From: Patescibacteria group bacterium
Lineage (GTDB): Bacteria; Patescibacteriota; Minisyncoccia; Phycocordibacterales; UBA918
NCBI GenBank assembly: GCA_019752815.1
Contig: JAIELQ010000007.1
Coordinates: forward strand, 115,728-179,727
DNA: 64,000 nt
Reading direction: 5' to 3'
Of this stretch, positions 2,250 through 51,933 are shown piece by piece. The notes beneath the pieces were generated by a model, which worked only from the letters and a program-made list of their open reading frames with translations, was not told the origin of the DNA and searched no databases. Numbering within the stretch: position 1 is the stretch's first letter; each line of letters begins with the position of its first letter. A program made the translations under genes and the position numbers.

Positions 2250-3689
2250 ATGCGCGCACTTTTGTTAATTATCATGTTGTTAATCCTCGGTACCGGTAAT
2301 TTTGTGCATGCCCAAAGTGATGACACAAAAGCTCCCGAGATTTCGAATGTAACCATTGGTACGACGACCGAAGAATCAGTAACGTTAACGTGGCAAACAA
2401 ATGAAAAGGCTGACTCGTCGGTGAACTACGGCCTGCAACCCGACTACGGTATTGTCCGTGTACCGGTAGCTGATAGAACAACGCACTCAGTCACTTTAAA
2501 CAACCTCGAACCGGGACGAGTCTATTATTTCCGGGTGGTGTCGGCTGATGCCGAAGGGAACCAGGGTATTTCTGCTGACTATAAAATCCAAACCGAAGGC
2601 ACTCCTGCCATTGGTGAAGGAGAGAGTGAGTCTGAGCCCGTTGAGGAAATCATTGAACAAATAAAACAAATTCAAAGCGTCCAAAAACTGCAAGAGATTG
2701 TTAATGAAACCATTAAAGCCATTCAGGGTATCTCAGAAGATCTCACGATTGTTGGTCCGCCAACGGTAATACCGGAAACTACCTCAGCCACCGTAAAATG
2801 GGTGACCGATCGTGAAGCTAGTTCGGAGGTGCAGTTTTCGCCGACACAAACGTTTTCAGGTAACTATAACTTCTCCCAATCATCAACGGGAGGAAACACC
2901 ACCGATCACGAAATTCGACTCATTGGACTTGAGCCATTTACCGAATACAGTTTCAAAGTTATTTCAACCGATACCTATAACATTACTGGAGAAAGTAGAA
3001 ATTATACCTTCCGTACCAAAGCCGCGTTGCCTGACATTCGTAATCTGCGCATCGTAAAAGTAGAGGAAAATGCAGCTACCTTAGCCTGGGATACGACGGT
3101 GCCAGCCAAAGCCTTGATTGAGTTTCAGGATTTAACCACCGGAGTGCAAAACTCAGTTGGTCGTCCTACGTTGGCTACGACGCACCAGATGCGTTTAGCT
3201 GATTTGACCCTGGGTACTCGCTATGTGGCCTTTGTGATTGCGGAAAACTCTGGTGGTGACCGGGTGCGCAGTCAGCCAATTCAATTCATTACGGTACGTG
3301 ATATTGCTCCGCCAATTATTACTAACGTGACTAATGAATCAACTATTTTCCCCGGCGGTGAGTCACGGATTCAAACCATTGTAGAGTGGAATACTGACGA
3401 ATCAGCCTCGTGTCTTATGACGTATCGTGAAGGGGTAGCGGGCGGGGTAGATCCAATTACGATTGAAAAGGAAAATGAACAATTCTCAACCACTCACGTG
3501 GAGGTAATTGTTGACTTCGCTCCGGCGACCGTCTATCAATTCTGGCTTAACTGTACTGATGAAGCAAAAAATACTATCCAGTCAGAAAACTTTGTGCTCT
3601 TTACCCCAATTCAAGAGAAAAACATTATCGATTTGATCTTGGAGAACTTCCAGAGTACCTTCGGTTGGGTTAAAAACATCACCAACTAA
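2250..3689 (+). CDS. Secreted multi-FN3 (fibronectin type III / PAP-N-like) repeat protein
   Basis: Signal peptide MRALLLIIMLLILGTGNFVHAQ. At least four FN3-like units with the pattern W.T.E...S.V.YG...Y......H.V.L..L.P.T.Y.FRV.S.D..GN. Acidic linker between units 1 and 2. Confidence 0.7.
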   Translation: MRALLLIIMLLILGTGNFVHAQSDDTKAPEISNVTIGTTTEESVTLTWQTNEKADSSVNYGLQPDYGIVRVPVADRTTHSVTLNNLEPGRVYYFRVVSADAEGNQGISADYKIQTEGTPAIGEGESESEPVEEIIEQIKQIQSVQKLQEIVNETIKAIQGISEDLTIVGPPTVIPETTSATVKWVTDREASSEVQFSPTQTFSGNYNFSQSSTGGNTTDHEIRLIGLEPFTEYSFKVISTDTYNITGESRNYTFRTKAALPDIRNLRIVKVEENAATLAWDTTVPAKALIEFQDLTTGVQNSVGRPTLATTHQMRLADLTLGTRYVAFVIAENSGGDRVRSQPIQFITVRDIAPPIITNVTNESTIFPGGESRIQTIVEWNTDESASCLMTYREGVAGGVDPITIEKENEQFSTTHVEVIVDFAPATVYQFWLNCTDEAKNTIQSENFVLFTPIQEKNIIDLILENFQSTFGWVKNITN

Positions 3690-3699
3690 AGCTTAAAAA

Positions 3700-3780
3700 C
3701 GGCGAACTTCTTTGTCAGGCTGCGGTAAAAGTTTTCTCACCGTACAAGAAGTACGGCTCGCAAACTTTTCCTTGCCTTTC
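3700..3780. repeat. 3'-UTR repeat family, copy A (core GCGAAyTTCT..GCGGTAAAAnTTTCnCTCACCGTAC-loop-GTACGGCTCGCAAAnTTTTCCTTGC)
   Basis: Aligns by eye with copies at 6681-6770 and 35470-35550. Contains the hairpin CCGTAC-AAGAA-GTACGG. Confidence 0.6.
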
Positions 3781-3917
3781 GCGAATTTCACTCGTTTTAA
3801 AGCTTTAGTGATAAGTAAGATATTGATTGCGTCGTCTGAAAAAATTAATGCAAATCTAATATACAAAACTGGGGAGTGAAGCTAAGAACTTGAAGGTAGC
3901 GTGGCATAATATAGTAA

Positions 3918-5240
3918 ATGGCAAAACCGCTCATTACGTGTCGAGATCTTTCGATTATTTATAACAAGGGGAAATCGAACGAGTTTCGGGCTCTTCAGAA
4001 TGTAAATACTGATATTTATGAAGGGGAGTATATTATTCTCTTCGGTGCGTCTGGTTCAGGGAAATCAACCCTGATGTATTCAATTCAAGGTTCACTTCCG
4101 CCCGGAGACGGTACGTTACTTATTCGTGGAGACGACATTTATTCGTATCCACCGTCTGAGCGCGTGTATTTCCAACGGTACGTGATGGGTATTATTTTCC
4201 AGTCGTTTAACTTGATTGGGTCGTTGTCAGTATTGGACAACGTGGCCTTGCCGATGATTTTCTGTGACGCTGATAAGGCAACTCGTAATCGTCGCGCGCA
4301 GTCACTTTTGGACCGTTTTGGGGTGGGGCACGTATCACATAAAATTCCTTCGATGCTCTCAGGAGGTCAGCAACAGCGTGTATCAGTAGCGCGTTCGATG
4401 GTGAACGACCCTAAGATTCTGTTGGCAGATGAACCAACTGGTAACCTCGACTCGGTTTCAACGCAGCAGGTTATGGATAAAATCGACGAGATTAATACGT
4501 TTGACCGTCGTACTATTATTATGGTGTCGCACAATGCGGCGCACTTAAGTTACGCCCACCGGGTGTACTATCTCAAAGACGGCTTTGTGGTGCGTGAAGT
4601 AGTAAACCCCCAGCGAAAACAAATTAAACCGGTACGAGAAGGGGAGACAATCGTAACCGAGCTCGAACAGCTCGCTCGGTTATTCCCGTATGACTCAGTG
4701 GATACACTGCGGGTGAAAAGTATGGTGAACTTCCTAACCCAGGACTACACTTTTAGCCAAATTAACCGTTTAGAACGGACGGTAGGACATTTCATTAAGG
4801 GTAAAATTGATACCGATGCTTTTATTAAAACGCTCATATTGCCAACGGAACAGGGTGGAATAGAGATGCCCGAAGCCACAGCCAAAAAAATGGCCAAACA
4901 AGCAGACTTAATGATTCATCAAGCTGATGATATTCGCCGTTTTAGAGCTAAAAAAGATAATACCGGGGTATTTTTTAGTCAGCACAAGCTCGCAGAACGC
5001 CTCAAAGACCATTTGCTGGGGGTGTACCGCATTAAGTTATCAAAAGACCAAGATACCAATCTCGTTGAATTGATTGCTGACCGGGTAACGGGTGTGTCTG
5101 ACGAACTAGAATTTAACAATCGACTAATGGCTGGTATTAGGTCTCGTGGTCTGGCGTTATCAGAAGGGGAGGCTGATGAGATCACGCGTTACTTTGAGAA
5201 ATTGATTGCGCAGGGTGTCGACGTATCGTACAAGAGTTAG
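3918..5240 (+). CDS. ABC transporter ATP-binding protein (MacB/LolD/FtsE-like) with a ~200-aa C-terminal extension
   Basis: Walker A GASGSGKST, Q-loop, signature LSGGQQQRVSVARSM, Walker B LLADEPTGNLD, H-loop VSHN. Residues ~230-440 have no ABC motifs. Confidence 0.85.
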   Translation: MAKPLITCRDLSIIYNKGKSNEFRALQNVNTDIYEGEYIILFGASGSGKSTLMYSIQGSLPPGDGTLLIRGDDIYSYPPSERVYFQRYVMGIIFQSFNLIGSLSVLDNVALPMIFCDADKATRNRRAQSLLDRFGVGHVSHKIPSMLSGGQQQRVSVARSMVNDPKILLADEPTGNLDSVSTQQVMDKIDEINTFDRRTIIMVSHNAAHLSYAHRVYYLKDGFVVREVVNPQRKQIKPVREGETIVTELEQLARLFPYDSVDTLRVKSMVNFLTQDYTFSQINRLERTVGHFIKGKIDTDAFIKTLILPTEQGGIEMPEATAKKMAKQADLMIHQADDIRRFRAKKDNTGVFFSQHKLAERLKDHLLGVYRIKLSKDQDTNLVELIADRVTGVSDELEFNNRLMAGIRSRGLALSEGEADEITRYFEKLIAQGVDVSYKS

Positions 5241-5365
5241 TCCGGTTTCCAAAATTTGCACATTGCGTTGTCGTCACTGCGGAACTTTTCGTTCCGTCGT
5301 ACGATGGTACGCCTATACGAAAAGTCCTTGTACTCCTAGCACTGTACTCAATTTTGAAAACCTCA
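5241..5365. repeat. 3'-UTR repeat family, copy B (TTCCAAAAtTTGCACATTGCGTTGTCG..CTGCGG.AC.TTTC..CCGTCGTAC-GAT-GGTACG..ACTCCTAGCACTGTACTCAATTTTGAAAA)
   Basis: Near-identical 5' and 3' modules to copy E (11161-11370). Lies between the ABC ATPase and permease genes. Confidence 0.6.
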
Positions 5366-5454
5366 ATACACATATTAATTATAGAATGAGTCATTAAAAT
5401 AAAACCTGTGGGTTGTATCAAGTTACAAATACTCCCTGTGTCATAATAGAGTAA

Positions 5455-6663
5455 ATGCGAATTCAAGACCTCGCCCAACTTTCGACGCGTATGTTCAAGA
5501 CTAACCCGTTGCGTACGTGGTTAACTATTTTAGGTATGGGTGTGGGGACTGGGGCAGTGGTTATTCTGGTAGGACTTGGATTTGGACTGCAGCAAATCAT
5601 TCTCGAACAAATTGTGTTCGGTGAGACACTATTGTCACTCGGTGTATCGGCTACTGGTGCTCAGAATCTTAAACTCACCACCGAAACCGTAACAGCTTTT
5701 GAAAAGAAGCCTGAAGTACTTGATGCGGCGCCTCTAGCGCGGTTTCCTGCCTTGGTAACGTATAAGGGTCTAACCGGGAACGTCTTTATTCAGGGGGTTG
5801 AACCGCCATATCTTCGCTATGCCGGAGTTTCAGCGACTGAAGGAACTGTATTTACTGATGCTGATGCAGGGGACACTAATTCAGTAATGTTGTCACCAGC
5901 CGTACTTAAACTCTTCGGGATTGATGATCCGGCTGCCTTTATCGGCCAGAAGGTAAGTTTCCGTTTGCTTATTCCCGCAGAAGATGGCACTGACACGAAT
6001 ACAGAAGTAGTGATTGATAAAGAGTATACTGTTCGCGGTATTACCAAAGAAGAAGGGGTATTAAATGCCATGATGATGTTGCCTGAACTACGAAACTATG
6101 TCGGTATTGAAGAATACGAACGCATTCAGGTGCGTGTTGATACCAATGAAAACTTACCACTTATTGAAAAGCAACTAATTGAAGAGGGGTACCGAGTAAC
6201 TGCGCTGTCTAAAACCGTAGAACAAGCGTCAAAAATTTTCCAGGGGGTGCAGGCGGTCCTGGCTACTTTTGGTGGAATTGCACTTTTGGTATCAGCGATT
6301 GGGATGTTCAATACCATGACGGTAACCCTGCTCGAGCGGACAAAAGAGATTGGAATCATGCGTACCATCGGTGCGTCACCTAATGACGTAAAATATTTAT
6401 TCGTGTCAGAATCAGTGGTGGTAGGTTTTATGGGTGGGCTTACTGGTGTGGCTATGGGGGTGACTTTGGGGCTGACCATTAATCTCTTTTTAAACGTCGT
6501 GGCCGGTCAATTTGGCGGACAATCAGTTAATCTTTTCTCATTTCCTTTAGGATTCCTCAGTTTCATTATTGTTTTCTCTGCGTGCGTGGGGTACCTAACC
6601 GGAATTTTTCCGGCACGGCGAGCGTCATCACTTAATCCCCTAGACGCCATTCGCTATGAATAG
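5455..6663 (+). CDS. ABC transporter permease, FtsX/MacB family
   Basis: N-terminal TM, large extracytoplasmic domain, then a C-terminal 3-TM FtsX domain (MFNTMTVTLLERTKEIGIMRTIGASPNDV...). Immediately downstream of the ABC ATPase. Confidence 0.8.
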   Translation: MRIQDLAQLSTRMFKTNPLRTWLTILGMGVGTGAVVILVGLGFGLQQIILEQIVFGETLLSLGVSATGAQNLKLTTETVTAFEKKPEVLDAAPLARFPALVTYKGLTGNVFIQGVEPPYLRYAGVSATEGTVFTDADAGDTNSVMLSPAVLKLFGIDDPAAFIGQKVSFRLLIPAEDGTDTNTEVVIDKEYTVRGITKEEGVLNAMMMLPELRNYVGIEEYERIQVRVDTNENLPLIEKQLIEEGYRVTALSKTVEQASKIFQGVQAVLATFGGIALLVSAIGMFNTMTVTLLERTKEIGIMRTIGASPNDVKYLFVSESVVVGFMGGLTGVAMGVTLGLTINLFLNVVAGQFGGQSVNLFSFPLGFLSFIIVFSACVGYLTGIFPARRASSLNPLDAIRYE

Positions 6664-6790
6664 TCTGGAACTCACAAGTGGCGAATTTCTGCGTTGTGCC
6701 GCGGTAAAATTTCGCTCACCGTATGAATATACGACTCGCAAAATTTTCCTTGCACGCCTTGAACTCCACTCACTTGAGAATCCCAGACAA
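6664..6790. repeat. 3'-UTR repeat family, copy C
   Basis: GCGAATTTCTGCG..GCGGTAAAATTTCGCTCACCGTAT-GAAT-ATACGACTCGCAAAATTTTCCTTGCACGCCTTG. Hairpin arms covary relative to copies A and F. Confidence 0.6.
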
Positions 6791-6885
6791 CGAAATAAGA
6801 TTTTATATTACAAAGAGTGAGTAAGTGTGTGTATAACTTGGGTATAGTTTGGGGGATATCAGCTAAAATGAAGTAGTAAATTATT

Positions 6886-8778
6886 ATGACGTACAACAAA
6901 CAAGAACTACCGCGGTATGTAGAGACCGCAGGAAAAATAACCGTTTTAACAGCATTAACAGGAGTATTAATCTTTGCCTTTGTTTTCATTTTAAACATTG
7001 GTAAAACCGAGTTACAAAAAGCCGAAGCTCAATCAGGGACGGCCACCACCACCCTAACCGTACTTAACACGCCGCCCGTATGGACGGTAGGTCAAGAAGG
7101 TCGTGAGGAAATTCCCTCATCAACCAGTACGCCAACCAACTCGGGTGATACGGTATCCTGGATTGGGCGAGCTACTGATGCAAACAACGCACCGTATTTC
7201 TTGATTGTGTGTAGTACCTCGGCCACACCAACTGCCCAACAGTCAACTTCTACCCTTGGAACCAACCCTCCAATATGTTCTGCCGGTACTCGCTTTGCTG
7301 TTTCTACCTCTACAGTCTCAGGACAGCAAGCTCGCGCTGCCACTACCACAACTGAAGTAGCTCCATTTTCTGAATCTAATGCCTGGTGGGCTTGGGTGTG
7401 TGACGATGACCCGGTTAATCCACGTTGCAGTACGACATCATCACAGGGCACCACCGCAACTAACTCCTCACCATTTAATGTCAATCGTCGTCCAGTATTT
7501 ACTACTTTTAACAACGGTGGACCAACTAATCCAGGTGGAACAGTTCAATTCTTATCCTCATCAACAGACCCTGACGTAGTTGATGCTGAAGACACCATTT
7601 TCCTTACTGTTTGTGGAAGTGCCGGTTTCAGTACAACAACCCTAAGTTGTACTGGCGTGACGGTTGCTTCGACATCAGTACCTGGTTCTTTGGCAAACGC
7701 TACAACTTCACGAGTATTGCCAGCGATTATTCAAGACGATAACAACTACGCAGCATTCCCATACGTTCATGATCAGCACGGTCACGTTGCTTCAGGAGGT
7801 GCTCAAGGTGTCAACGTGCCGTATACTGTCAGTAATGTAGCCCCGACCGTAGCAGGAGGTACGCTCAGTCTTAACGGAGGCTCACCGATAACTCTTACTA
7901 ACCCAGGTGCTCAAACCACAGGCTTCACGCTCGCATACACAGTCGCTGATGCTAATAGTTGTGATGCGGTTGGTGGAGGTAACGCTGATGAAATTACCGG
8001 TTATGTTGCGTCAGTATTTCGTTCTGGCGTAGGCACATCCACCTGTAACGGTTCAGCTGGTAGCTATAACCCAAATAACTGTTATCCGAGTGGTGTTGCC
8101 ACATCAACATGGAACTTAGCTTGTACCGCTTCAACTACCAGTTGTACTGCAGGAGGAGCTGATGACACTATCATTTACAATTGTACGTTCCCGCTTTGGT
8201 TCATTGCAGACCCAACCAACGGGACATCGACAGATACCAACTTCCACCTTCAACACTGGGCAGCTGGGGTAGCGGGTGTCGACAATAACAACGCTACCGG
8301 AAGTATGTCGACTTCGACAACACCGGTTGAGCTTAATAGTCTGGTGGCGATTGGTTTACAAACAAACTTGATTGCGTACTCACAACTCGAACCGGGAACT
8401 AACATGCCAACCCTCAGTGCATCAACAACATTGCGCGTACTTGGGAATACTGGTCTAAACCAATTACTCGGAGGAGATTCAATGTGTGGAACGTACTCAC
8501 CAGGTAACCCTTGTCCAGTTTCAGCTACAACTACTATCCCGCAATCAGAGCAGCGCTATGCGACTTCAGCAGTTGCGTATGGATCTGGAACACCACTACA
8601 ACCTACTTCAACACCAGGTCTGTTGCTTAACCAAATTCCAAAACCTACCAGTACCTCAACACCAGCCACTGGTCAAACATTCTGGGGTATCGCAGTACCT
8701 GGCTCGATTTCACTCGCTGGGTCTTATACAGGACAAAACACCTTCACTGGAGCGGTTTCTTCACCAGCCACCTGGTAG
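6886..8778 (+). CDS. Membrane-anchored Thr/Ser-rich surface protein, paralogue of the C-terminal half of ORF 1..2224
   Basis: N-terminal TM (ITVLTALTGVLIFAFVFIL). The C-terminal ~260 aa share colinear motifs with ORF1 (NGGSPITLT, FRSGVG, NPNNCY, EQRYATS, FWGIAVP). Confidence 0.6.
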   Translation: MTYNKQELPRYVETAGKITVLTALTGVLIFAFVFILNIGKTELQKAEAQSGTATTTLTVLNTPPVWTVGQEGREEIPSSTSTPTNSGDTVSWIGRATDANNAPYFLIVCSTSATPTAQQSTSTLGTNPPICSAGTRFAVSTSTVSGQQARAATTTTEVAPFSESNAWWAWVCDDDPVNPRCSTTSSQGTTATNSSPFNVNRRPVFTTFNNGGPTNPGGTVQFLSSSTDPDVVDAEDTIFLTVCGSAGFSTTTLSCTGVTVASTSVPGSLANATTSRVLPAIIQDDNNYAAFPYVHDQHGHVASGGAQGVNVPYTVSNVAPTVAGGTLSLNGGSPITLTNPGAQTTGFTLAYTVADANSCDAVGGGNADEITGYVASVFRSGVGTSTCNGSAGSYNPNNCYPSGVATSTWNLACTASTTSCTAGGADDTIIYNCTFPLWFIADPTNGTSTDTNFHLQHWAAGVAGVDNNNATGSMSTSTTPVELNSLVAIGLQTNLIAYSQLEPGTNMPTLSASTTLRVLGNTGLNQLLGGDSMCGTYSPGNPCPVSATTTIPQSEQRYATSAVAYGSGTPLQPTSTPGLLLNQIPKPTSTSTPATGQTFWGIAVPGSISLAGSYTGQNTFTGAVSSPATW

Positions 8779-8781
8779 TTA

Positions 8782-8990
8782 TAGAACTTCCAGAAAGGGC
8801 ACACTTCTTCGTTGGATAATAAAAAATACGCCTCAATGTACAAATGTACACCTCGGCGTATTTTTTATTATCCTTCTTACAGAAGCTGTCCACTCATTGG
8901 CCAGATTGTTTCTCAAGTTCACAACCTGGCTCAATGAGTCTTGCGGAAGCTTTGTGCTTCCTCACTCGAATTGTACTCCTTTCTGAAAGT
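8782..8990. repeat. 3'-UTR repeat family, copy D (long modular form)
   Basis: Starts AGAACTTCCAGAAAGGGCACA as in copies B/E. Shares an internal module (CTTCTTACAGAAGCTGTCCACTCATTGG ... CTCAATGAGTCTTG) and a 3' module (CACTC..TACTCCTTTCTGAAAG) with copy E. Confidence 0.55.
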
Positions 8991-9013
8991 CCCGTTACCT
9001 AATAAAAAACAAT

Positions 9014-9051
9014 AACCACCGTTATCAGACGGTGGTTGTTGCTTTTTGTTG
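9014..9051 (+). terminator. Rho-independent terminator
   Basis: AACCACCGT-TATCAG-ACGGTGGTT followed by GTTGCTTTTTGTTG. Confidence 0.6.
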
Positions 9052-9079
9052 AAATATTTTTGATAATAGTATCACCTGC

Positions 9080-10045
9080 ATGAAGTTAATTTTTGGAACA
9101 TCTCTTTTTCAACTAAGCGCGTTAGTTGTCATCTTATATTTTGCGTTTGGTACTTTGGTAGCGAGTGCTAGCTTCGGTATCACACCGCCGTATGTTCGCA
9201 ATACGAGTCTCACCCGTAACTCAACATATGAGCAACAAATTCTTTTGGTACGAGGAGACCCAAATATGCCCCTCAACGCACAGATTGTAGTTGATGCCCC
9301 TGAGATTCAAGACTGGATTGAAATCGTTGAAGGGACGACAATTTTACTTCCACGTGGTGAACAAAAAGTACCAATGACCGTACGGATTAAAGTACCGAGT
9401 GATGCTGACTATCGTGAGTACGAAGGTAAAATTCGTATCAGAACACAACCAACGAATGATCAGGTGGCTGATGGTGTGGTCAGTATTTCTCTTGGTGCCC
9501 AAGTTGATATCAACTTAAATGTTATCGATAGAGTCATTGAGGATTTTCGTGTGCGTAAAATTGATGTCTCAGATCTTGATGCAGGGCACAAATTAGGCTG
9601 GTTATTTTTCCCTGGAAAAATTAATTTTACGATGTCACTTGAAAACACAGGTAACGTAAACATTGCACCGTCAAAAGTGCAGTTCCGAATTTTTGATCGA
9701 ACTGGAGCAGTATTGCTTGAAGAGACACAACATACTGGTAAGCTTAAAAAAATTGCGCCATACGCCACTGAAGATGTGACCGCCCATCTACCTACCAGAC
9801 TTCCCGCTGGAAGTTACATGGCCCGATATGCGATTTATAACAACGATGAGGTTAAACAAGAAGGGGAGTTGAACTTAAGTATTCTCCCGTACGGTACGCT
9901 ACAAACTGCTGGTTATGGCTTTGGGGGGCTATCTATTCCACATAAAATCTCTATTTTGTTGCCACTCTTTGCCTTCATTATCATTGTGCTCTACGCCATT
10001 TACTATCGTCGCAAAGGCCGTAAAGACGATACCCTTATAAACTAG
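9080..10045 (+). CDS. Secreted two-domain beta-sandwich protein with C-terminal TM anchor and basic tail. Paralogue of 28503 and 29458 (architecture reminiscent of DUF916/DUF3324 cell-surface proteins).
   Basis: Signal/TM at the N-terminus. Motif W.EI..G...LP.G....P; a second domain has ENTGNVNI. C-terminal TM LLPLFAFIIIVLYAIYY plus RRKGRKDD. Confidence 0.55.
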   Translation: MKLIFGTSLFQLSALVVILYFAFGTLVASASFGITPPYVRNTSLTRNSTYEQQILLVRGDPNMPLNAQIVVDAPEIQDWIEIVEGTTILLPRGEQKVPMTVRIKVPSDADYREYEGKIRIRTQPTNDQVADGVVSISLGAQVDINLNVIDRVIEDFRVRKIDVSDLDAGHKLGWLFFPGKINFTMSLENTGNVNIAPSKVQFRIFDRTGAVLLEETQHTGKLKKIAPYATEDVTAHLPTRLPAGSYMARYAIYNNDEVKQEGELNLSILPYGTLQTAGYGFGGLSIPHKISILLPLFAFIIIVLYAIYYRRKGRKDDTLIN

Positions 10046-10046
10046 T

Positions 10047-11162
10047 ATGAAATGGTTCGTCCCTTTCTTTCAACTACTAGCCGTAGTCATTATATTTGGT
10101 AGTGAAGTACATGCGCAGATTGAAACTGTTGGTGTGGCAACTACTACTATCACGTTAAGTATTTGTGGAAACAGTCTGGTTGATTCATCAGAAGACTGTG
10201 ATGTTCCTGGCGAAACTGGTGTCTATAGTACAACTATCGTTGGTAGACAATGTACCCCAACGTGTAAATTTGGTCCGTATTGTGGTGATGGTATTTTGCA
10301 GACCCAATTTACTGAAGAGTGTGACGACGGCAATAACACGAGTCTCGATTTCTGTTCTGCTACCTGCAAAATTGAACCAGCTGGCTCCGGTGGAGGGGGA
10401 AGTTCAGGCGGAGGTGGCGGGTCTGGCGGTGGTGAGCGCGATCTTGGTGACACCCAGATTAGTGTGACTGGTATCGGGTATCCAAGTCAGACGATAAACT
10501 TTTTGCTCGATACAAAATCTATTGGTTCGGTACGAGCCAATAGTTCAGGTCGTTTTGAGTTTGCGGCCGATGCGTCTCCGGGAACAGCTACATTAGGTGT
10601 ATGGGCTGTAGATTCCGCTGGTAAACGTTCTATTACGCTCAATAACACCTTTGACGTCACTCAGGGCGCAGTTACGAACGTGAGTGGTCTTATCTTGCCA
10701 CCGACCATTTCAGTAGCCAACCCAAATGTTATTCCAGGCAGTATTATTGCTATTACCGGGCAAAGTATTCCATCAGTAAAAGTTGATGTGCACTTTAATA
10801 ACAGTGAAATCGTTGAGTCGGTCACGAGTGGAGCTGACGGTAAATATACATTAAATTTTAATTCTACTCGTTTGCGTAACGCTGAATACACCATCAAAGC
10901 TCGTTCCGTCTCAGGTGTGGCACCACTATTAACACAAAGTAGTTTCAGTACATCACTTCAACTTTTTGTCGGTGTTGATGGGCGAGCCACCTCACCATCA
11001 GACCTTAGTCGTGATGGAAAAGTTAACCTAGTAGACTTCTCGATTTTGATCTTCTGGTGGCAAACCGCCGGCGGTGATTCTAATCCACCAGCTGACATTA
11101 ACGGTAATGGTCGGGTGAGTTTGGAAGACTTTTCTATCCTCCTCTTTAACTGGACCGGCTAG
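10047..11162 (+). CDS. Secreted protein: Myxococcus-type cysteine-rich repeat, Gly/Ser linker, Ig-like domains, C-terminal dockerin-like double repeat
   Basis: Signal peptide. Cysteine-rich motif CGDGILQTQFTEECDDGNNTSLDFCSATCKIE (the CGxG..EECDDGN..CSxTC pattern). Linker GSGGGGSSGGGGGSGGGE. C-terminal DLSRDGKVNLVDFSILIF and DINGNGRVSLEDFSILLFNW match the Ca-binding DxNxDGxVNxxD dockerin pattern. Confidence 0.65.
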   Translation: MKWFVPFFQLLAVVIIFGSEVHAQIETVGVATTTITLSICGNSLVDSSEDCDVPGETGVYSTTIVGRQCTPTCKFGPYCGDGILQTQFTEECDDGNNTSLDFCSATCKIEPAGSGGGGSSGGGGGSGGGERDLGDTQISVTGIGYPSQTINFLLDTKSIGSVRANSSGRFEFAADASPGTATLGVWAVDSAGKRSITLNNTFDVTQGAVTNVSGLILPPTISVANPNVIPGSIIAITGQSIPSVKVDVHFNNSEIVESVTSGADGKYTLNFNSTRLRNAEYTIKARSVSGVAPLLTQSSFSTSLQLFVGVDGRATSPSDLSRDGKVNLVDFSILIFWWQTAGGDSNPPADINGNGRVSLEDFSILLFNWTG

Positions 11163-11370
11163 AACTTCCAAAAATGGCACATTGCGTTGTCGCTGCTGCG
11201 GTACATTTTCCTCCACCGTACAGCGGTACGTTTCCAGAAAATGTCCTTGCTTCTTACAGAAGCTGTCCACTCATTCGGTATTTTTTACAAAATCCCTCAA
11301 TGAGTCTTGAGAAAGCAAAGCAGTTTGCTTTCTCACTCCTAGCACTGCACTCAGTTTTGAAAATTCTACT
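11161..11370. repeat. 3'-UTR repeat family, copy E (long modular form)
   Basis: AACTTCCAAAAATGGCACATTGCGTTGTCGCTGCTGCGGTACATTTTCCTCCACCGTAC-AGCG-GTACG... 5' half matches copy B; internal and 3' modules match copies D and B. Confidence 0.6.
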
Positions 11371-11452
11371 CAACGTGTGATTCTGACGTTTGGTGATATG
11401 CGAGATTTTGTAGTGATTCATTTTTAACTAGACCGGGTAACAATTAATTTTA

Positions 11453-11830
11453 GTTCGAGTCCCTGTCAGGCAGCGAGTAGAAAAGACATTCTTCGGGATG
11501 TTTTTTCGTATCGCTGCCTGACAGGCGCAGCTTTCTGAAAGAAAGCGTCTGCGCGAACTCGAAGCCGTTGCCAGCTCTTTTGAAAAAAGAGCGACAACGG
11601 GTACTGAACATGTAATGTTCGAGTCCCTGTCAGGCAACAATCGGCAGACCACAAATGTGAATACATTTGTGGCCTTTGCCGTTGCTAGTATGACAGGGGC
11701 TCGAAAGACGTAAGCCGGGGCCCCTCTGGGCCGGCGAGTCGGGGTCGAAAGCACTTACTAGAATTGGAACGAAGTGAACAATTTTAGTTATTGACTTGTG
11801 ACCGAGTCCCTGTCAGTCATAAAAAATCGG
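11453..11830. other. Densely structured non-coding block: three direct copies of GTTCGAGTCCCTGTCAGGCA (tRNA T-arm/acceptor 3'-end-like), each with an inverted partner. Several long nested hairpins. Candidate structured ncRNA(s) or att-site remnants.
   Basis: Copies at 11453-11472, 11617-11636 and 11802-11819. Perfect 15-bp inverted repeat 11462-11476/11511-11525. Hairpins at 11525-11554, 11565-11600 and 11621-11705. GC-rich hairpin GCCGGGGCCC-CTCT-GGGCCGGC at 11714-11735. Confidence 0.5.
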
Positions 11831-11900
11831 CTAGGAATTTACTAGTCGAATTCTTTATAATTTGTTATGCTCTGATTAGAAACAGCAAAGGGGTTGCAAG

Positions 11901-12350
11901 ATGACATCTGACAGCCCTTTTGAGGGTAAAATTGTGATTGTGTCGTACACAGAGTGTAATTTAGACACGGAAGACACTGCGTGTCTTGTGTATAGAGTTG
12001 AGCAAGGGAAACTCGTACCGTTACTTGGAGTTCTTGATTTGCCAGACGGCTTGCATTGGCATCGAAATGATTATGATCAATACGATGTTGCGATCGCTGT
12101 CATCAAGAGAACTGGCAGTCTCGAGGTTTTTGTTCCAAACTATTTTATTCCTGGGAAGCAATTTTTTGGTCAAGAGTTTGGATTTGTCGAACTCAGTGAA
12201 GGGCTAAATGATAAAAATGAGATTGAAGAGTGGTGTGAATATGATGGTTTCTTATATAATTGGGAAATGCTCAGATTGCTTGAGGAGCACCAGATTAAAG
12301 TCAGGTATATTGACCCAAAAACGATGCACGTCATTCCAGAAGAAAATTAA
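11901..12350 (+). CDS. Hypothetical cytoplasmic protein
   Basis: 149-aa ORF, no recognisable motifs. Followed by hairpin CGGCAC-GCT-GTGCCG and an AT tract (12353-12380). Confidence 0.45.
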   Translation: MTSDSPFEGKIVIVSYTECNLDTEDTACLVYRVEQGKLVPLLGVLDLPDGLHWHRNDYDQYDVAIAVIKRTGSLEVFVPNYFIPGKQFFGQEFGFVELSEGLNDKNEIEEWCEYDGFLYNWEMLRLLEEHQIKVRYIDPKTMHVIPEEN

Positions 12351-15031: not shown

Positions 15032-16174
15032 ATGAGTAGAACGAATACCACGTTCGGACTACTCCAAGCTATTGCAGCGATAGCAGCCTTTGCCATACTT
15101 CTATGGTCAATTGGTTTGCCATCATTCCGTTTTGCGGAAGCTGCAAGTGTCACGTCGCTTAGCGACACCCTCTCAGATTCTGCTCCTGCAGTTGGATCTG
15201 ATCACACTATCAACTTTATTACACCAAGTGGTGTAGCAAACGGTAGTACGATTGTTGTAGATTTTTCTGATGGACCATTTGTGGTTGGTTCAGTTAACTT
15301 CACAGACATTGACGTCTTTGATGACGCCACCAGTCTCGATGTTGCTGCAAACTGCTCTGGTACAGAACAAATCGGTGCGTCCTTTTCTGGGTCAGTCCTC
15401 ACACTTGAATTTTGTTCAGGTGATGGCGGATCACTCCCTACATCAGGCACAACGACAATCTTGATTGGTGAAAATGCTGCTGGAGGAAATGCCCAATTAA
15501 CTAACCCATCAGTTGGATCGTATGAAATCAATCTAACCGTTGGAGCAAGTGATATTGGCTCAACTCGAGTAGCGATTATTGCACCAGTTGTAGTGACGGC
15601 TGCTGTGGATACGAGCTTTACCTTTACGGTAGCGGGTCTTCCAGGCGGTACCGATGTGAACTCGTTGGTAACAACAGGGACATCAACTGCAACTGCAATT
15701 GCATTTGGTGCACTGACAGATGGTAATGCATCTTCTGCTGCTCAACGATTAAGTGTTTCAACAAACGCTAGTTATGGTTTTGCAGTAACTGTGCAGGCAG
15801 ATCAACAACTGACTTCGTCAGCCGGAGCAGATATTGATGGATTTATCGACGGTGCATTTACGAATACTCCGGTATCATGGACATCACCAACACCGATAAT
15901 TTCAGATGAAGATACGTGGGGTCACTGGGGTCTAACCACCAATGATGCAACGTTCGGACTCTCTGACCCGTTTGATGTAGGAGGAGCTGGCAATCGTTTT
16001 GTTTCAGCTTCAACTACACCAGTACAGATATTTCGACATGATGGACCAGCTGACGGTACAACCCAAGATATTGGGCGAGCCGATGTGGGTTATCAAGTAG
16101 AAATCTCAGGTTTGCAGGAAGCAGGAACAGATTACACCGCTACGCTGACATACGTAGCAACTCCAGTATTCTAA
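15032..16174 (+). CDS. Secreted/anchored Thr/Ser/Gly-rich surface protein (candidate abundant cell-surface structural protein)
   Basis: N-terminal hydrophobic segment FGLLQAIAAIAAFAILLWSIGL. Low-complexity beta-rich composition. Preceded by a ~600-bp AT-rich leader and followed by a strong terminator. Confidence 0.55.
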   Translation: MSRTNTTFGLLQAIAAIAAFAILLWSIGLPSFRFAEAASVTSLSDTLSDSAPAVGSDHTINFITPSGVANGSTIVVDFSDGPFVVGSVNFTDIDVFDDATSLDVAANCSGTEQIGASFSGSVLTLEFCSGDGGSLPTSGTTTILIGENAAGGNAQLTNPSVGSYEINLTVGASDIGSTRVAIIAPVVVTAAVDTSFTFTVAGLPGGTDVNSLVTTGTSTATAIAFGALTDGNASSAAQRLSVSTNASYGFAVTVQADQQLTSSAGADIDGFIDGAFTNTPVSWTSPTPIISDEDTWGHWGLTTNDATFGLSDPFDVGGAGNRFVSASTTPVQIFRHDGPADGTTQDIGRADVGYQVEISGLQEAGTDYTATLTYVATPVF

Positions 16175-16206
16175 ACGAATAGTGGATCCAAGCTTGGAGT
16201 ACAAGC

Positions 16207-16246
16207 AAAAAACCCTATCTCCCACCACGAGTAGGGTTTTTGCTTT
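16207..16246 (+). terminator. Rho-independent terminator
   Basis: AAAACCCTA-(loop)-TAGGGTTTTT followed by GCTTTGTGT. Confidence 0.65.
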
Positions 16247-16274
16247 GTGTACAAGATCATAAAAGCTCGTAGAT

Positions 16275-17312
16275 ATGGGCTATACTAGAACTACTATGAG
16301 GTATATTTTGTTGGCGGTTGTGTTTCTTGTCTCAGCTTCGATGGTTGAGGCAGCGACACTGTATATGGACCCTAATACAGTCAGTCTTAATCGTGGTGAC
16401 GCTGCTAAAATTTCCATCAGACTCGATACCGACGAGGCAGCGGGTGAGTGTATTAACGCAATTGATGCGGTGATTTCTTATAGTGACAATATTATTCCGG
16501 TTGATATTTCAGTGGGAAAATCTATTTTGCCAATTTGGGTAGAAAATCCAGTCATTAACAAAGAAAATAACACTATTAGTTTTGCTGGTGGTATCCCGAA
16601 TGGGTATTGTGGACGAGTACAAGGAGATCCAAATCTTACCAACACCCTCGTGGAAATTTTTTTTAGAGCACCCGGTATGCAAGTGGGTGGTGGTGAAGCT
16701 CGTTCACAAGCAACAGTGCAATTTACCGATGAAACAACAGCGTATTTAAATGATGGAGCCGGAACACCTGCGAGTTTACAAAAAATTGGTGCTAATTTTA
16801 CGCTCGGCGACAATGTAGGAAGTGAAATTCTCGATCCGTGGAGTGGTGATGTGCAATCAGATGATGCTCCGCCAGAGGAGTTTAGTGCTAGTGTTGAAAT
16901 GATTGATAACAAATGGTTTGTAGTGTTTAACACCACTGATAAACAAACAGGAATCAGTCATTATGAAGTCATTGAAGAAACCTATTCACAATCAAAGCTT
17001 TTTGACTTTGGAGCGGCCACAGCGCCTGGGGTCGAAACACGTAGTCCCCATTTATTAAAAGATCAGTCACGTAACAGTGTTGTCCGGGTACGAGCTATCG
17101 ATAAAGCTGGTAATGAGTATGTAGCTACCGTGCCCGTTGATGAGTCGGCTCGTCGCTTTTCGATTACGCCGGAGCTTATGGTCATGGCAGGTATTGCAAT
17201 TACGGGAGTGCTGATACTACTAGGCCTCGTGTACTGGTTCATCAGACGGCGTAGAGCAAAAAAGAATACGCTTGCTAATTTAGAAGAAAGTGATTCTGGT
17301 GTATTAGAATAA
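16275..17312 (+). CDS. Cohesin-like domain surface protein with C-terminal TM anchor and basic tail
   Basis: Signal peptide, then ATLYMDPNTVSLNRGDAAKISIRLDTDE...AIDAVISYSDNIIPVDISVG..ISFAGGIPNGY (cohesin-like beta-sandwich pattern). C-terminal TM MVMAGIAITGVLILLGLVYWFI plus RRRRAKK. Confidence 0.6.
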   Translation: MGYTRTTMRYILLAVVFLVSASMVEAATLYMDPNTVSLNRGDAAKISIRLDTDEAAGECINAIDAVISYSDNIIPVDISVGKSILPIWVENPVINKENNTISFAGGIPNGYCGRVQGDPNLTNTLVEIFFRAPGMQVGGGEARSQATVQFTDETTAYLNDGAGTPASLQKIGANFTLGDNVGSEILDPWSGDVQSDDAPPEEFSASVEMIDNKWFVVFNTTDKQTGISHYEVIEETYSQSKLFDFGAATAPGVETRSPHLLKDQSRNSVVRVRAIDKAGNEYVATVPVDESARRFSITPELMVMAGIAITGVLILLGLVYWFIRRRRAKKNTLANLEESDSGVLE

Positions 17313-17316
17313 AAAT

Positions 17317-19068
17317 ATGAATATCGAACTATCTACCTTTGTACAAAAAGTCTTCATCCGAGTACTTCTTGTGGGAATAATCTTATTTGCGCTTCCTGTA
17401 CTCACCCAGGCTGCGACGTTGTCAGTTTCTCCTGGAACGGGAGTGTATAAAACTGGCGCCACGTTTACTGTAACAGTATTTGTAAACACTGCGGGTGTGC
17501 CGGTAAATGCCGCTGATGGAACACTTTCATTTAATCCTCGTGAACTATCGGTTGTTTCAGTATCCCGAGCGTCATCAATTTTTAATCTTTGGACTACGGA
17601 ACCAGCTTTCTCAAATTCAGCTGGTACGGTGTCATTTTCTGGTGGTGTGCCAACAGGCTACACTGGTAGTGCGGCAAATGTGCTGTCGGTAACATTTAGG
17701 TCTCTTACCTCGGGTGCTGCCCGCGTGTCTCTGACTGGAGCATCCGTCTTGGCAGCTGATGGACGAGGCACTAATGTTCTTACCGGGATGAGCGGAGGTA
17801 CGTATACACTATCAGCAGTAGAGTCGCAGCCGGCACCAGAAGTAATTGTTGAGTATGTGCCACCTGCAAATACCCCAAATGCACCGGTAATTACCTCAGC
17901 GACACATCCAGATCAAAATAGCTGGTCTAAAGAAACAACCGCCGTGTTTAATTGGACAGTGCCTGCCGGTGTAACAGCAGTACGAACAGGACTGGATAAA
18001 AGTCCGGTAGCGATTCCAACCAAAGTCTACGATAGTCCTATTCGAACTTTGACAATCCCTGACTTGGATCAAGGGGTGTCGTATCTGCACGTTCAGTTTA
18101 GAAATGCCGACGGTTGGGGTAAGGTTGCGCATTACAAATTGTCAGTTGACTCTGAAAAGCCTGAATCGTTTACCATCACGTTACCTGAAGATGCTGATCT
18201 CTCAAGTCCAACACAAACCCTTAATCTAGCTATCGTAGATAAAGCATCACCGGTCACAAAATTTAAAGTTCAGCTTGATGGTGGTGAGGCATATGACCAC
18301 ACCGCTTCGGGAACTAACCCTACGCTTGAGCTACCTAATCTAACGCCAGGTTACCATACAGTCGTTGTTGAAGGGTTCGATAGTGCGGGTAATTCCTTAA
18401 TCGCGACATTTTCATTTAGTATTACCGCTTTTGATAAACCACTCATAACTGAGTATCCAGCTACCCTCAATTCAGGAGTGACACCAGTTATACGTGGTAC
18501 TACCAAGGCAAATGCAACAGTAAAAGGTGTACTGACAGACGTGCAAGGTGTGGAAACTATTCTGGAAGGTGTAGCTGACGGCAGTGGTGTGTTTACCATT
18601 ATTCCTACCGATTCACTTAAGACTGGACGATATTCGCTTGTAGTAACCGCTACCGATGTTTCTGGTGGGCAAAGTGAACCGTCAGATACGGTAACGATAG
18701 TTGTATCTGAGCCAGGATATGTAGCAGTTGGGTCGTTTTTGATTAGTTTCTTTTCAATCCTTATACCACTCATTGCTCTGGTTGTATTGACGTGGTTGAC
18801 ACTCATCTATTCAATACGAAAAATGGGTCGCATGCGGGCACGGGTTATAGTAGAATCTGAAGAGGCAGCCATGATGCTCGCGACCGAGTTCAGACATTTG
18901 GATCAAGTCATTGCAGAGCAAGAAGCCGCCCTTATAGCTTCGCACAAAACGAAAAAGTTAACCAAAGCCGAAGAAACAATGTTTGCTGAACTTAAGTCGA
19001 CCATCGCTGAAGCCAAGCGTCGAGTCGGAAAAGAAGTTGATGATGTTACCCATGTATTCAAAAAATAA
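17317..19068 (+). CDS. Cohesin-like domain surface protein with Ig-like repeats and C-terminal TM anchor / cytoplasmic coiled-coil tail
   Basis: Signal peptide, then ATLSVSPGTGVYKTGATFTVTVFVNTAGVPVNAADGTLSFNPRELSVVSVS..VSFSGGVPTGY, colinear with the N-termini of 16275 and 19751. TM FLISFFSILIPLIALVVLTWL followed by a charged helical tail. Confidence 0.6.
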   Translation: MNIELSTFVQKVFIRVLLVGIILFALPVLTQAATLSVSPGTGVYKTGATFTVTVFVNTAGVPVNAADGTLSFNPRELSVVSVSRASSIFNLWTTEPAFSNSAGTVSFSGGVPTGYTGSAANVLSVTFRSLTSGAARVSLTGASVLAADGRGTNVLTGMSGGTYTLSAVESQPAPEVIVEYVPPANTPNAPVITSATHPDQNSWSKETTAVFNWTVPAGVTAVRTGLDKSPVAIPTKVYDSPIRTLTIPDLDQGVSYLHVQFRNADGWGKVAHYKLSVDSEKPESFTITLPEDADLSSPTQTLNLAIVDKASPVTKFKVQLDGGEAYDHTASGTNPTLELPNLTPGYHTVVVEGFDSAGNSLIATFSFSITAFDKPLITEYPATLNSGVTPVIRGTTKANATVKGVLTDVQGVETILEGVADGSGVFTIIPTDSLKTGRYSLVVTATDVSGGQSEPSDTVTIVVSEPGYVAVGSFLISFFSILIPLIALVVLTWLTLIYSIRKMGRMRARVIVESEEAAMMLATEFRHLDQVIAEQEAALIASHKTKKLTKAEETMFAELKSTIAEAKRRVGKEVDDVTHVFKK

Positions 19069-19076
19069 TTACTGCT

Positions 19077-19754
19077 ATGAAAATTAATTTAAACCGCCTG
19101 ACTACCATTCTGATTATCTGTGTGATTGTACTCATTGTCGTATTCCTCACCCTGCACGCTTCTACATCAGGCCAAAACAGTAAAGTAACTGCGACGCTAG
19201 ATGCTGCAATACTTATTCAAAAAGACAATCTGGCAGATCTGGCCGATATTACCCGAGTTAATGGTGCAGATGCCACAACTGACCGTATTATTACCGATTG
19301 TAGTGCTGGTGAACGTGAACGATTTGATACACTGCTTGATAAATTACAAGGAAATATCTCCAAAGATGAATTAAACGAACTCAATACCTTGTTTTATGCC
19401 TGCGGTAGTTTTTTTGCTGATAGAAAAGCGGTGGTGGCTACTAAATTACTGCGTGAGGTTGAGGTGCTTTCCGATTATCTTGATTTACGGAGTATTGTAA
19501 CGAGTAAAAGTTCTGAAGGGTCATCCCAACTAGAGGCATGGAAGAAGCTTGCTGAGTCTGAACTCAAAACCGCGGAATATTTTAAGGAGCTAGTTTTATT
19601 GCAAGGAAAAATCATCGTACTTTTAAGTAGTGGACAAACACCGACCTCGCCTGAGGTGTTGGCAACGCTCAGTCAGGTGAGTACGATACGAGGACAAATG
19701 CTTGTCTTAGGTAATCAAATTGAAGTTCTAAAAACCGAGGCGTTAACACTATGA
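19077..19754 (+). CDS. Membrane-anchored coiled-coil protein of unknown function
   Basis: N-terminal TM LTTILIICVIVLIVVFL; remainder helical. 4-nt start/stop overlap with the next gene (ATGA). Confidence 0.5.
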   Translation: MKINLNRLTTILIICVIVLIVVFLTLHASTSGQNSKVTATLDAAILIQKDNLADLADITRVNGADATTDRIITDCSAGERERFDTLLDKLQGNISKDELNELNTLFYACGSFFADRKAVVATKLLREVEVLSDYLDLRSIVTSKSSEGSSQLEAWKKLAESELKTAEYFKELVLLQGKIIVLLSSGQTPTSPEVLATLSQVSTIRGQMLVLGNQIEVLKTEALTL

Positions 19755-20509: not shown

Positions 20510-20602
20510 GTCGGAATGGTGATGAGATTTATGTTGATAAAAAAGCGTTTTAGTTGCGTGATACCTGATATTATGTACTAGATGGGAAATTTATAACGGA
20601 CC

Positions 20603-22273: not shown

Positions 22274-22341
22274 TGTGGTGTAATACCGGCTCTCTACAGG
22301 TAGTAGTTTGTAGGGTACGCAAAGCATGAGAAAATAAACCC

Positions 22342-28497: not shown

Positions 28498-28502
28498 CTC
28501 CT

Positions 28503-35459: not shown

Positions 35460-35469
35460 AATCACTTCA

Positions 35470-35550
35470 TCTGCTGTGTTGTGGTGCGCAAATTTTTGTT
35501 CACCTTACGAAAAGTAAGGCTCACGAAAAATTTACTTCCACGCCTTGCAT
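35470..35550. repeat. 3'-UTR repeat family, copy F
   Basis: GCGCAAATTTTTGTTCACCTTAC-GAAAA-GTAAGGCTCACGAAAAATTTACTTCCACGCCTTG. Hairpin arms carry compensatory changes (CCTTAC/GTAAGG versus CCGTAC/GTACGG in copy A). Confidence 0.55.
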
Positions 35551-35590
35551 CTAAAGCAATTTAACTCATTAACCTGAGTTGATAGCAAGA

Positions 35591-35632
35591 ACACAAAACC
35601 ACTGACCTTCGGTCAGTGGTTTTGTGTTCTGG
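35591..35632. terminator. 17-bp perfect hairpin (probable bidirectional/intrinsic terminator)
   Basis: ACACAAAACCACTGACC-TTCG-GGTCAGTGGTTTTGTGT. Confidence 0.55.
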
Positions 35633-35676
35633 TAGCCTGTATTAATGATAATTATCGTGTATAGTAGCGGGTACAA

Positions 35677-49354: not shown

Positions 49355-49466
49355 CCCGTATCACACCACCTTGGGCAGTATGAATAAGTCAGTGACCGCC
49401 CATTGGACGCGAGGCAATATACCTCTAACTAGTTGATGTGATAAATGATTGATTGAATAATAGCAC

Positions 49467-49928: not shown

Positions 49929-49938
49929 AACAATTTAA

Positions 49939-51874: not shown

Positions 51875-51933
51875 TTGTTTAGATTAACTATTAATAAGAG
51901 CATGGAGGCCTCCGTGTCTCTTACTTTAATTAT

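Follow-up and report, generated by a model that had tools for sequence, protein, structure and literature searches.

A stop-codon-anchored family of rod-shaped palindromic repeats in Patescibacteria with a pairing bias towards the strand opposite the upstream mRNA

Results

Six copies of one repeat lie at gene ends of a patescibacterial contig

We analyzed a 64,000-nt stretch of the genome of a Patescibacteria group bacterium (assembly GCA_019752815.1, contig JAIELQ010000007.1, positions 115,728 to 179,727 of the forward strand), hereafter referred to as the window, in which a preliminary description made from the letters alone had listed six intergenic elements with a common hairpin. The elements are copies of a single repeat, named A to F here. 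A covariance model (CM) built from relatives, R1, was run over the whole window with the filters off and returned six matches, all on the plus strand and at the same six sites. The six stretches align with one another, and each begins at the stop codon of an upstream open reading frame (ORF) on the plus strand; both the positions and the placement just behind stop codons stand as first described. The shared core GCGGTA..TCACCGTAC-loop-GTACGG..TCCTTGC had also been read correctly. A strict pattern derived from this core (GCGGWA-N13-CGTAY-N4/5-RTACG-N13-TCCTTG) is present in four of the copies (A, B, C and E) and in 0 of 100 shuffled sequences. Copies D and E reach low R1 scores because an inserted module truncates the match (Table 1).

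According to Pfam, the genes upstream of the repeat encode an Fn3-domain protein (copy A), an ABC ATPase (copy B), a MacB/FtsX permease (copy C), a Big_6/dockerin protein (copy E) and an FKBP isomerase (copy F), and the 630-aa ORF upstream of copy D has no Pfam match. In copy A, the foot helix CTAAAGCTT/AAGCTTTAG includes the TAA stop (3687–3689) of the Fn3-domain gene (2250–3689), and the foot helix of copy F (GGTTAATGAG/CTCATTAACC) takes in the last codons and the TAA stop (35457–35459) of the FKBP gene. Copy B starts from the TAG stop of the ABC ATPase gene (3918–5240) and is followed by the permease gene (5455–6663), which agrees with the earlier placement of one copy between an ABC ATPase gene and its permease. 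Copy C starts from the TAG stop of this permease gene, and orthologous copies occupy the same site in two relatives (L029 and L034). Copy D comes after a TAG stop (8776–8778) and is composed of a 5′ arm (8779–8815), a perfect 19-bp A/T-flanked hairpin that replaces the apex (8816–8872), an inserted three-hairpin module (8872–8965) and a 3′ arm (8966–8992). Copy E starts from the TAG stop (11160–11162) of the dockerin/Big_6 gene and contains the 5′ arm and core (11157–11249), the three-hairpin module (11250–11336) and the 3′ arm (11337–11369); its ortholog in L010 is a plain short copy. The canonical terminator downstream of copy D is kept in relatives with or without the repeat.

Table 1. Coordinates of the repeat copies and of the adjoining terminators in the window.
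Feature	Positions	Strand	Evidence
Copy A, short form	3682–3812	+	R1 119 bits, fold, stop position
Copy B, short form, 'type 1' arms GGCACATTGCG../..CTCCTAGCACTGYACTC	5238–5368	+	R1 75 bits, Pfam
Copy C, short form	6661–6790	+	R1 120 bits, synteny
Copy D, long rearranged form	8779–8992	+	R1 34 bits, fold, module search
Copy E, long form	11157–11369	+	R1 34 bits, module search, fold
Copy F, divergent short form	35445–35576	+	R1 67 bits; ortholog in L005
Canonical terminator hairpin and T run, downstream of copy D	9003–9049	+	Context, outside the repeat
Canonical bidirectional-type terminator, 8 nt past copy F	35584–35634	+	Context

The repeat forms a rod that is supported by covariation

RNAfold of each copy pairs the entire ~130 nt back on itself, and the 6-bp hairpin noted before is only the tip of this structure. 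From the foot inward, the rod begins with an outer helix of 9–10 bp, often spanning the stop codon, and a second helix (CAAAAATGG/CATTTTTG-like). Two helices of 3 bp each and one of 4 bp (GCGC-type) come next, then a GG/CC pair, an 8–10-bp A/U-rich helix and the apical CCGTAC/GTACGG hairpin. Five to seven short helices are present per rod, separated by small internal loops of conserved sequence (YKCGTT, TGC, CTCA/CTCG, TCCTTG and GCCTNG). In the alignment of the repeat family, the apex is the most conserved part, and the outer helix and the ends are the least conserved. A ~90-nt side module of three hairpins is optional and present in some copies only. The six elements are one family of ~130-nt rod-shaped imperfect palindromes, which extend beyond the 6-bp hairpin.

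In a gapless seed of 23 sequences, 88% of the cells are paired compared with 70% in shuffles, double changes are found in 32 of the 47 pairs, and none of 500 shuffles reaches any of the observed measures. Sliding the 3′ partner by 1–3 columns lowers the pairing to 33–47%. Across 105 model matches, 82% of the cells are paired (57% in shuffles) and 1171 cells carry double changes (381 in shuffles); this alignment was fitted to R1, which favours structure, and the slid controls and the seed result are independent of the fitting. One short inner helix (alignment columns 47–52 with 210–215) is mis-specified, with 32% of its cells pairing, and the covariation is overwhelming in every other helix. 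Structural selection on a repeat family, as proposed at the outset, is borne out by the shuffles and by the collapse of the slid controls. As for the related proposal, that the hairpin is conserved as structure and not as sequence, most of the covariation sits in the outer and middle helices, whereas the apical hairpin is nearly invariant across the wider family. The most conserved blocks of all copies, CTGCGGT ... TCACC ... TCCTT (for example, at 3720–3775 of the window), seem to follow one another as they do at the 3′ end of 16S rRNA (CCTGCGGTTGGATCACCTCCTT).

Modules are inserted into the rod

The ~90-nt module of copies D and E is inserted after TCCTTGC and consists of three hairpins (CTTCTTACAGAAG..CCACTCATTGG..CTCAATGAGTC..stem..CTCAC). 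Other genomes carry it in at least 11 further places, for the most part at the same position of the rod and sometimes within unrelated hairpins, which suggests that it is an independent insertable unit. Besides the two intervals in the window, it is seen at L070, L072, L029, L030, L034, L051, L052, L021 and L108. Its layout runs from CTTCYTTACAGRAR.. through CCACTCATTGG..CTCAATGAGTC to a variable third stem with a CTCAC end, and the first and third hairpins covary. The long modules that D and E were said to share are real, but the string ACTCCTAGCACTG.ACTCA.TTTTGAAAA, which had been taken for one of them, is merely the 3′ arm of one subfamily. A second small module, GAAACGAGCG(A)TAGCGACTATT..TGTYCCGA-hairpin-CTGGAAC, is placed in the 5′ arm of a rod and in nearby intergenic regions of relatives (L010:5159–5485, L010:6668–6947 and L034:6556–6916).

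The family is concentrated in Patescibacteria and anchored at gene 3′ ends

The core pattern is found at 58 loci in contigs representing one genome per species, 55 of which come from 17 metagenome-assembled genomes (MAGs) of Patescibacteria. The label Ca. Kaiserbacteria applies to most of these MAGs, and a single MAG can have as many as 11 exact hits, spread over many contigs. The remaining loci belong to Desulfuromonadales (two) and Azospirillum (one); the Azospirillum locus (L013) matches the pattern but is rejected by R1 and is attributed to chance. In Desulfuromonadales, the copies have the same rod shape and conserved loops, and are located between the purH stop and purD. Metagenomes contribute 51 more loci, and viral contigs give no hit to the core pattern. 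R1 delimits 100 distinct copies in the genome set and 60 in the metagenome set. Rfam 15 at the gathering threshold recognizes only a tRNA-Ala in the whole window, and E-value scans of 3600–11900 and of five loci give hairpin hits at chance level only. The literature searched holds nothing comparable on repeats or structured RNAs of the candidate phyla radiation (CPR). The family is therefore new to the databases searched, and appears to be previously undescribed. In the window, the repeat stands at ~13% of the gene 3′ ends, a large share of sequence in genomes that are usually considered minimal, which implies a maintained function.

To describe the placement, an upstream ORF was counted if it is co-directional and at least 70 codons long. 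Such an ORF precedes 83 of the 100 copies in the genome set, and for 80 of the 83 the stop falls at −6 to +15 relative to the model start. These stops are TAA (53) or TAG (30), never TGA. The metagenome set shows the same placement in 44 of 53 copies (TAA 31, TAG 13, TGA 0). Both sets together give 84 TAA, 43 TAG and no TGA, for which ~8 are expected, TGA being 6% of the long-ORF stops in the same loci; TAG is not enriched over this background. The foot of the helix is at −10 to +13 of the stop, no further than ~10 nt from the stop of a co-directional upstream gene in ~80% of the copies, and some copies recruit the last codons of the ORF. The repeat precedes the next gene's promoter or a separate canonical terminator.

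The polarity of the repeat relative to the upstream gene is single and near-exclusive. In convergent gene pairs, each gene has its own copy and the two copies face each other (L049, L058 and L041), and tandem doublets occur at L057, L051 and L003. The few copies that seem reversed are found in convergent gene pairs with a short upstream gene. Because each copy keeps the orientation of its gene, also where genes converge, a purely replication-linked DNA explanation is disfavoured and a connection with transcription is favoured. The upstream genes encode SSB (5 copies), ribosomal protein S18 (4), the ATP synthase c subunit (4), a MacB permease, NUDIX, PurH, NusB, NusG, Pth, FtsA, a sigma factor and others; a common theme of secreted or membrane proteins is ruled out by these diverse housekeeping functions. 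Copies also reside within conserved operons (rpsF-ssb-rpsR, atp and purHD). The anchoring at ORF stops in both copy sets upholds the earlier view of an extragenic element at gene 3′ ends, including those inside apparent operons.

The strand opposite the mRNA folds better

On the sense strand, the modelled pairs contain 250 A.C/C.A mismatches versus 100 G.U/U.G pairs. Since an A.C mismatch on the sense strand is a G.U pair on the complement, the mismatch spectrum favours the complement. The mean minimum free energy (MFE) from RNAfold is −39.2 kcal/mol for the mRNA-sense strand versus −53.6 kcal/mol for the complement; in 95 of 96 copies the complement is the more stable strand (p = 2e-17). The same holds for all 60 independent metagenome copies, giving 155 of 156 in total, and, with DNA parameters, for 94 of 96 copies. 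Composition by itself does not account for the bias, as shuffles of the same composition differ between the strands by only 4.5 kcal/mol and the observed difference is 14.4 kcal/mol. For canonical terminators of the same loci, neither strand is preferred (sense in 6 cases, antisense in 4, equal in 11). The ~90-nt module has the same tendency as the rod, albeit weaker (11 of 13 cases).

The details of the fold point the same way. The longest uninterrupted helix has a median of 12 bp on the antisense strand versus 9 bp on the sense strand, and the foot is more continuous on the complement. The complement adds a G.U closing pair to the apical stem and turns the flanking loop into a tandem G.A motif. 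Unpaired columns of the sense strand are 65% pyrimidine and 15% G, the apical loops are A-rich on the sense strand and T-rich on the favoured strand, and the sense strand contains 25% C versus 18% G, within surroundings skewed towards G over C. Judged by the criterion usual in comparative analysis, selection has acted on the fold of the strand opposite the upstream mRNA. The preliminary description had assigned the folded molecule to the 3′-untranslated region (3′-UTR) of the upstream mRNA; mismatch types, folding energies, loop composition and the tandem G.A motif all speak for the complement instead, and the 3′-UTR hairpin reading is doubtful. A specific role as an RNase III-type substrate is not indicated, as uninterrupted helices of at least 20 bp are present in only 4 of 96 antisense and 0 of 96 sense folds.

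A role in the sense transcript nevertheless has to be weighed. As proposed for repetitive extragenic palindrome (REP) and enterobacterial repetitive intergenic consensus (ERIC) hairpins, a 3′-UTR or intercistronic RNA element could act as a 3′-exonuclease barrier, a processing site or a protein platform that sets the stability of the upstream cistron, and the G-poor, pyrimidine-rich loops would then be selected, for example to avoid G-specific cleavage or to bind a C/U-specific protein. We consider this alternative rather unlikely. It is consistent with a repeat that is co-transcribed between stop codon and terminator, keeps a strict polarity, rests its foot on the stop codon, at times pairing with the last codons, and follows the highly expressed genes ssb, rpsR and atpE. 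The apical loops of the sense fold are A-rich, its mean energy is still −39 kcal/mol, and transcribed REPs and transposable elements of the miniature inverted-repeat type (MITEs) offer a general precedent (PMC3733652). A functional sense RNA is difficult to reconcile, however, with transition intermediates that are A.C and not G.U, with the weaker fold in 155 of 156 copies, with internal loops that are pyrimidine-rich and form tandem G.A on the other strand only, and with the lack of the repeat at the same sites in close relatives. The comparative data give the obvious reading of a 3′-UTR RNA hairpin the least support.

The repeat is not a terminator and precedes individual promoters

No U tract is present in either direction; runs of at least four consecutive T are found at the 3′ foot of 12 of 95 copies on the sense strand and in 20 of 95 on the antisense strand. 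None of the six rods as a whole is flagged by a terminator consensus scan, and the only convincing terminator in 3600–12000 is at 9010–9041. At least 21 of the 100 copies have a separate canonical terminator within 110 nt downstream, which indicates that the repeat is inside the transcript and is not itself the terminator. The repeat resembles intrinsic terminators in forming a hairpin just past the stop, with a 5′ foot rich in A and a 3′ foot that contains T. It differs from them in its 130-nt length, its conserved loops, the missing U tract and the real terminator that often trails it. A canonical terminator in either direction is thus ruled out for lack of a U tract, in agreement with the first appraisal.

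A non-canonical terminator that depends on a factor, or a Rho loading site on the sense transcript, is a different matter. The sense RNA is C-rich and G-poor (25% C versus 18% G, opposite to the surrounding G>C skew), and in the intergenic regions of copies A, B, C and E the repeat is the only large structure before the next promoter. Each gene apparently has its own promoter, and the only canonical terminator in 3600–12000 is the one at 9010–9041. Yet Rho needs unstructured RNA, and the RNA of the repeat is extensively paired. Many copies are followed by a true terminator, others lie inside the conserved operons rpsF-ssb-rpsR, atp and purHD, and there is no U tract. We regard this alternative as highly improbable.

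A −10-like box, often preceded by TG, lies 6–10 nt before the ATG at the starts 3918, 5455, 9080, 31183, 35677, 45658 and 54250, and no Shine-Dalgarno sequence accompanies it. This arrangement suggests leaderless-type mRNAs and a separate promoter for every gene, the ABC ATPase and permease genes included. No positional enrichment of an antisense −10-like motif was found at a fixed distance downstream of the repeat. Because a conserved antisense promoter is lacking and copies such as F leave no room for one, an independent antisense RNA gene is unlikely; as a candidate, an antisense small RNA gene was rejected on this result and on the distance of only 8 nt from copy F to its terminator. The idea that the 3′ foot supplies the −35 element of a promoter was also rejected, as the −10 box is not enriched at the right spacing.

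Copies are long-lived at some sites and turn over at others

Within MAGs, 389 pairs of copies have a mean identity of 55% and a maximum of 89%, which gives no hint of recent transposition. Behind ssb and rpsR, copies persist in genomes at 60–72% SSB identity and carry the site signature ACCCAATCTGC...GGGCA. The window is syntenic with three relatives at 80–96% protein identity, among which individual sites differ. Downstream of the 630-aa gene, L010 has no copy (the stop is followed by 22 nt and a terminator), L034 has a plain copy, and the window has the rearranged copy D. In L029, other hairpins take the place of the repeat at two sites. The permease site has one subtype in the window and another in L010, where it is broken by a foreign module, and decayed remnants of 3′ arms are seen in L034. 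Between L017 and L026, the flanks are 96–99% identical, but the ssb copies are 65% identical and differ by compensatory changes, with the break beginning at the stop codon; one extra copy in L017 is absent from L026 at 96% flank identity. The family is thus retained for long at some sites (after ssb, rpsR and atpE) and gained, lost or swapped at others.

Strict extension of the helices revealed no target-site duplication, and a test based on the MFE was too noisy; TA..TA flanks are present in 12 of 96 copies. The suggestion of a MITE-like insertion accordingly survives only in part: gain, loss and nesting among relatives are observed, whereas target-site duplications, near-identical copies and conserved ends are missing. 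Two copies flanking rpsR in one MAG (L012:1161–1291 and L012:1565–1695) have an identical inner ~88 nt and unrelated outer helices, which suggests gene conversion confined to the conserved core.

Comparison with known repeat systems

REPs and bacterial interspersed mosaic elements (BIMEs) are 20–40 bp palindromes tagged with GTAG or CGTC, located mainly in extragenic positions downstream of ORFs (PMC3733652). Like these elements and their composite forms (REPINs), the repeat is extragenic, lies downstream of co-directional or convergent ORFs, is plausibly transcribed, has mosaic modules and tandem doublets, and persists over long times in a lineage. In contrast to them, its unit is 130 nt with conserved internal loops, and neither the consensus nor the columns conserved at 90% or more carry a terminal GTAG/CGTC tag. 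It also lacks abundant identical 'master' copies, has one polarity only and anchors its foot on the stop codon; the Y1 transposase of the REPIN system, RAYT (REP-associated tyrosine transposase), was not found within the 64-kb window. With ERIC/IRU, Correia (NEMIS) and other hairpin MITEs, the repeat shares the ~130-nt imperfect palindrome near ORFs, co-transcription, a long hairpin fold with a potential influence on the fate of the mRNA (PMC3733652) and a patchy occurrence among relatives. It differs in the lack of a TA or other target duplication, the variable termini, the apex as the most conserved part, the near-exclusive orientation and the absence of recent copies.

Chromosomal attC repeats of integrons, such as the ~125-bp repeats of the Vibrio superintegron, are similar to our repeat in size, in their adjacency to stop codons and in keeping structure over sequence. 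The repeat is likewise located at or over the stop with a fixed polarity. On thermodynamic grounds its favoured folding strand is the bottom strand (155 of 156 copies), the strand of attC that folds and is active. It lacks the RYYYAAC/GTTRRRY core sites, however, and its conserved nucleotides are apical, not basal. The foot consensus TARAAC...GTTYTA occurs at ~50–60% frequency and shows no RRR/YYY pattern. The copies are dispersed instead of being arrayed by an integrase, and the genes served are housekeeping genes; this diversity of upstream genes excludes an integron-cassette context. No tyrosine recombinase, Y1 transposase or reverse transcriptase was found in the window, and its sole recombinase is a serine recombinase in an island at the tRNA-Ala, 36 kb from copies A–E and 12 kb from copy F. 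Overall, the repeat behaves most like extragenic palindromes of the BIME/ERIC type, from which the stop-codon anchoring, the single polarity and the complementary-strand pairing bias appear to set it apart.

These comparisons bear on the alternative that the bottom strand folds as single-stranded DNA and is read by a structure-specific enzyme. An HUH/Y1 transposase would have precedents in REP/REPIN and in the ends of IS200/IS605 elements, and a tyrosine recombinase in the bottom strands of integron attC sites. The family would then be a non-autonomous mobile or recombination element, the orientation of which is set by selection against a strong hairpin in mRNA. The strand bias with DNA parameters (94 of 96) fits this alternative, as do the T-rich apical loops, G.T pairs and tandem G.A on the favoured strand, the likeness to chromosomal attC repeats, and the record of presence and absence, subtype replacement, nested modules, 3′-arm remnants and tandem doublets. 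Cleavage of single-stranded DNA is documented for E. coli RAYT, which binds and cleaves single-stranded REP DNA (PMC3733652). Much else is at odds with it: near-identical copies within genomes and target-site duplications are lacking, the ends are the least conserved part, and neither the GTAG/CGTC tag nor the R''/R' core sites are present. In the window, the copies have no integrase, Y1 transposase or reverse transcriptase nearby, the upstream genes are core housekeeping genes and not cassettes, the polarity follows the gene even in convergent pairs and hence not the direction of replication, and viral contigs have no match to the strict pattern. We consider this alternative unlikely.

Other features of the window

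At 47673–52809, the tRNA-Ala adjoins genes for a large serine recombinase and a Prim-Pol/AAA_25 protein on the minus strand, and the GC skew is locally reversed; the region resembles an integrated mobile element. The interval 58716–63563 holds a restriction-modification pair of type III, in which an N6_N4 methylase carrying an EcoP15I C-terminal domain is partnered by a ResIII helicase-endonuclease. The 2051-aa ORF at 22342–28497 has no Pfam match and belongs to a run of ORFs (15032–31110) that mostly lack Pfam matches, a few having Big_13 or LytR_C domains. Downstream of copy E, the intergenic stretch 11430–11900 is very strongly structured (MFE −202 kcal/mol, z −10.9) and contains three direct copies of GTTCGAGTCCCTGTCAGGCA, each within a long hairpin. 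These copies resemble a tRNA 3′ end (T-loop/acceptor); the stretch has no tRNA call, and the other loci lack the GTTCGAGTCCCTGTCAGGCA motif.

Discussion

Our favoured interpretation, to which we give a probability of about one in three, is that the repeat is a direction-dependent insulator at gene 3′ ends. The sense transcript, a G-poor rod with A.C mismatches and pyrimidine loops, would be passed and tolerated. A transcript of the opposite strand would form a much stronger, near-continuous rod, which could stall transcription or lead to RNA processing before the coding region is invaded. AT-rich promoters of this kind are known to initiate in both directions. Divergent initiation at the AT-rich promoter of the next gene, which apparently yields a leaderless mRNA, is a plausible source of such antisense RNA, and the conserved apical core may be the binding site of a putative factor.

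Several observations weigh against the insulator. The antisense transcripts are only postulated, and no antisense −10-like motif is enriched at a fixed distance downstream. In the at least 21% of copies followed by a terminator, this terminator looks bidirectional and already intervenes before the next promoter, which would make an insulator redundant there. Long uninterrupted helices (at least 20 bp) are restricted to the 4 of 96 antisense folds mentioned above, with none among the 96 sense folds. The insulator model does not explain the invariant apical core, nor does it explain the purH-purD copies in Desulfuromonadales. Finally, the strand bias fits the folding of bottom-strand DNA equally well.

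Whichever molecule is folded, the repeat may represent a new class of strand-specific structure that works opposite the mRNA, either as a hairpin of bottom-strand DNA that serves a structure-specific enzyme independently of integrons and IS elements or as a 'trap' for antisense RNA, and that is anchored at stop codons across a candidate-phylum lineage with relatives in Desulfuromonadota; we put this forward tentatively. For this family, comparative data speak with unusual clarity against the obvious '3′-UTR hairpin' reading, and R1 is a ready covariance model for the annotation of CPR genomes. If the fold of the complementary strand is the working form, the repeat would embody a mechanism that is undocumented at ordinary gene ends, be it the directional control of antisense transcription or a DNA-hairpin site. 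If the antisense-RNA 'trap' holds true, the repeat would police pervasive antisense transcription in genomes whose genes are seemingly leaderless and individually promoted.

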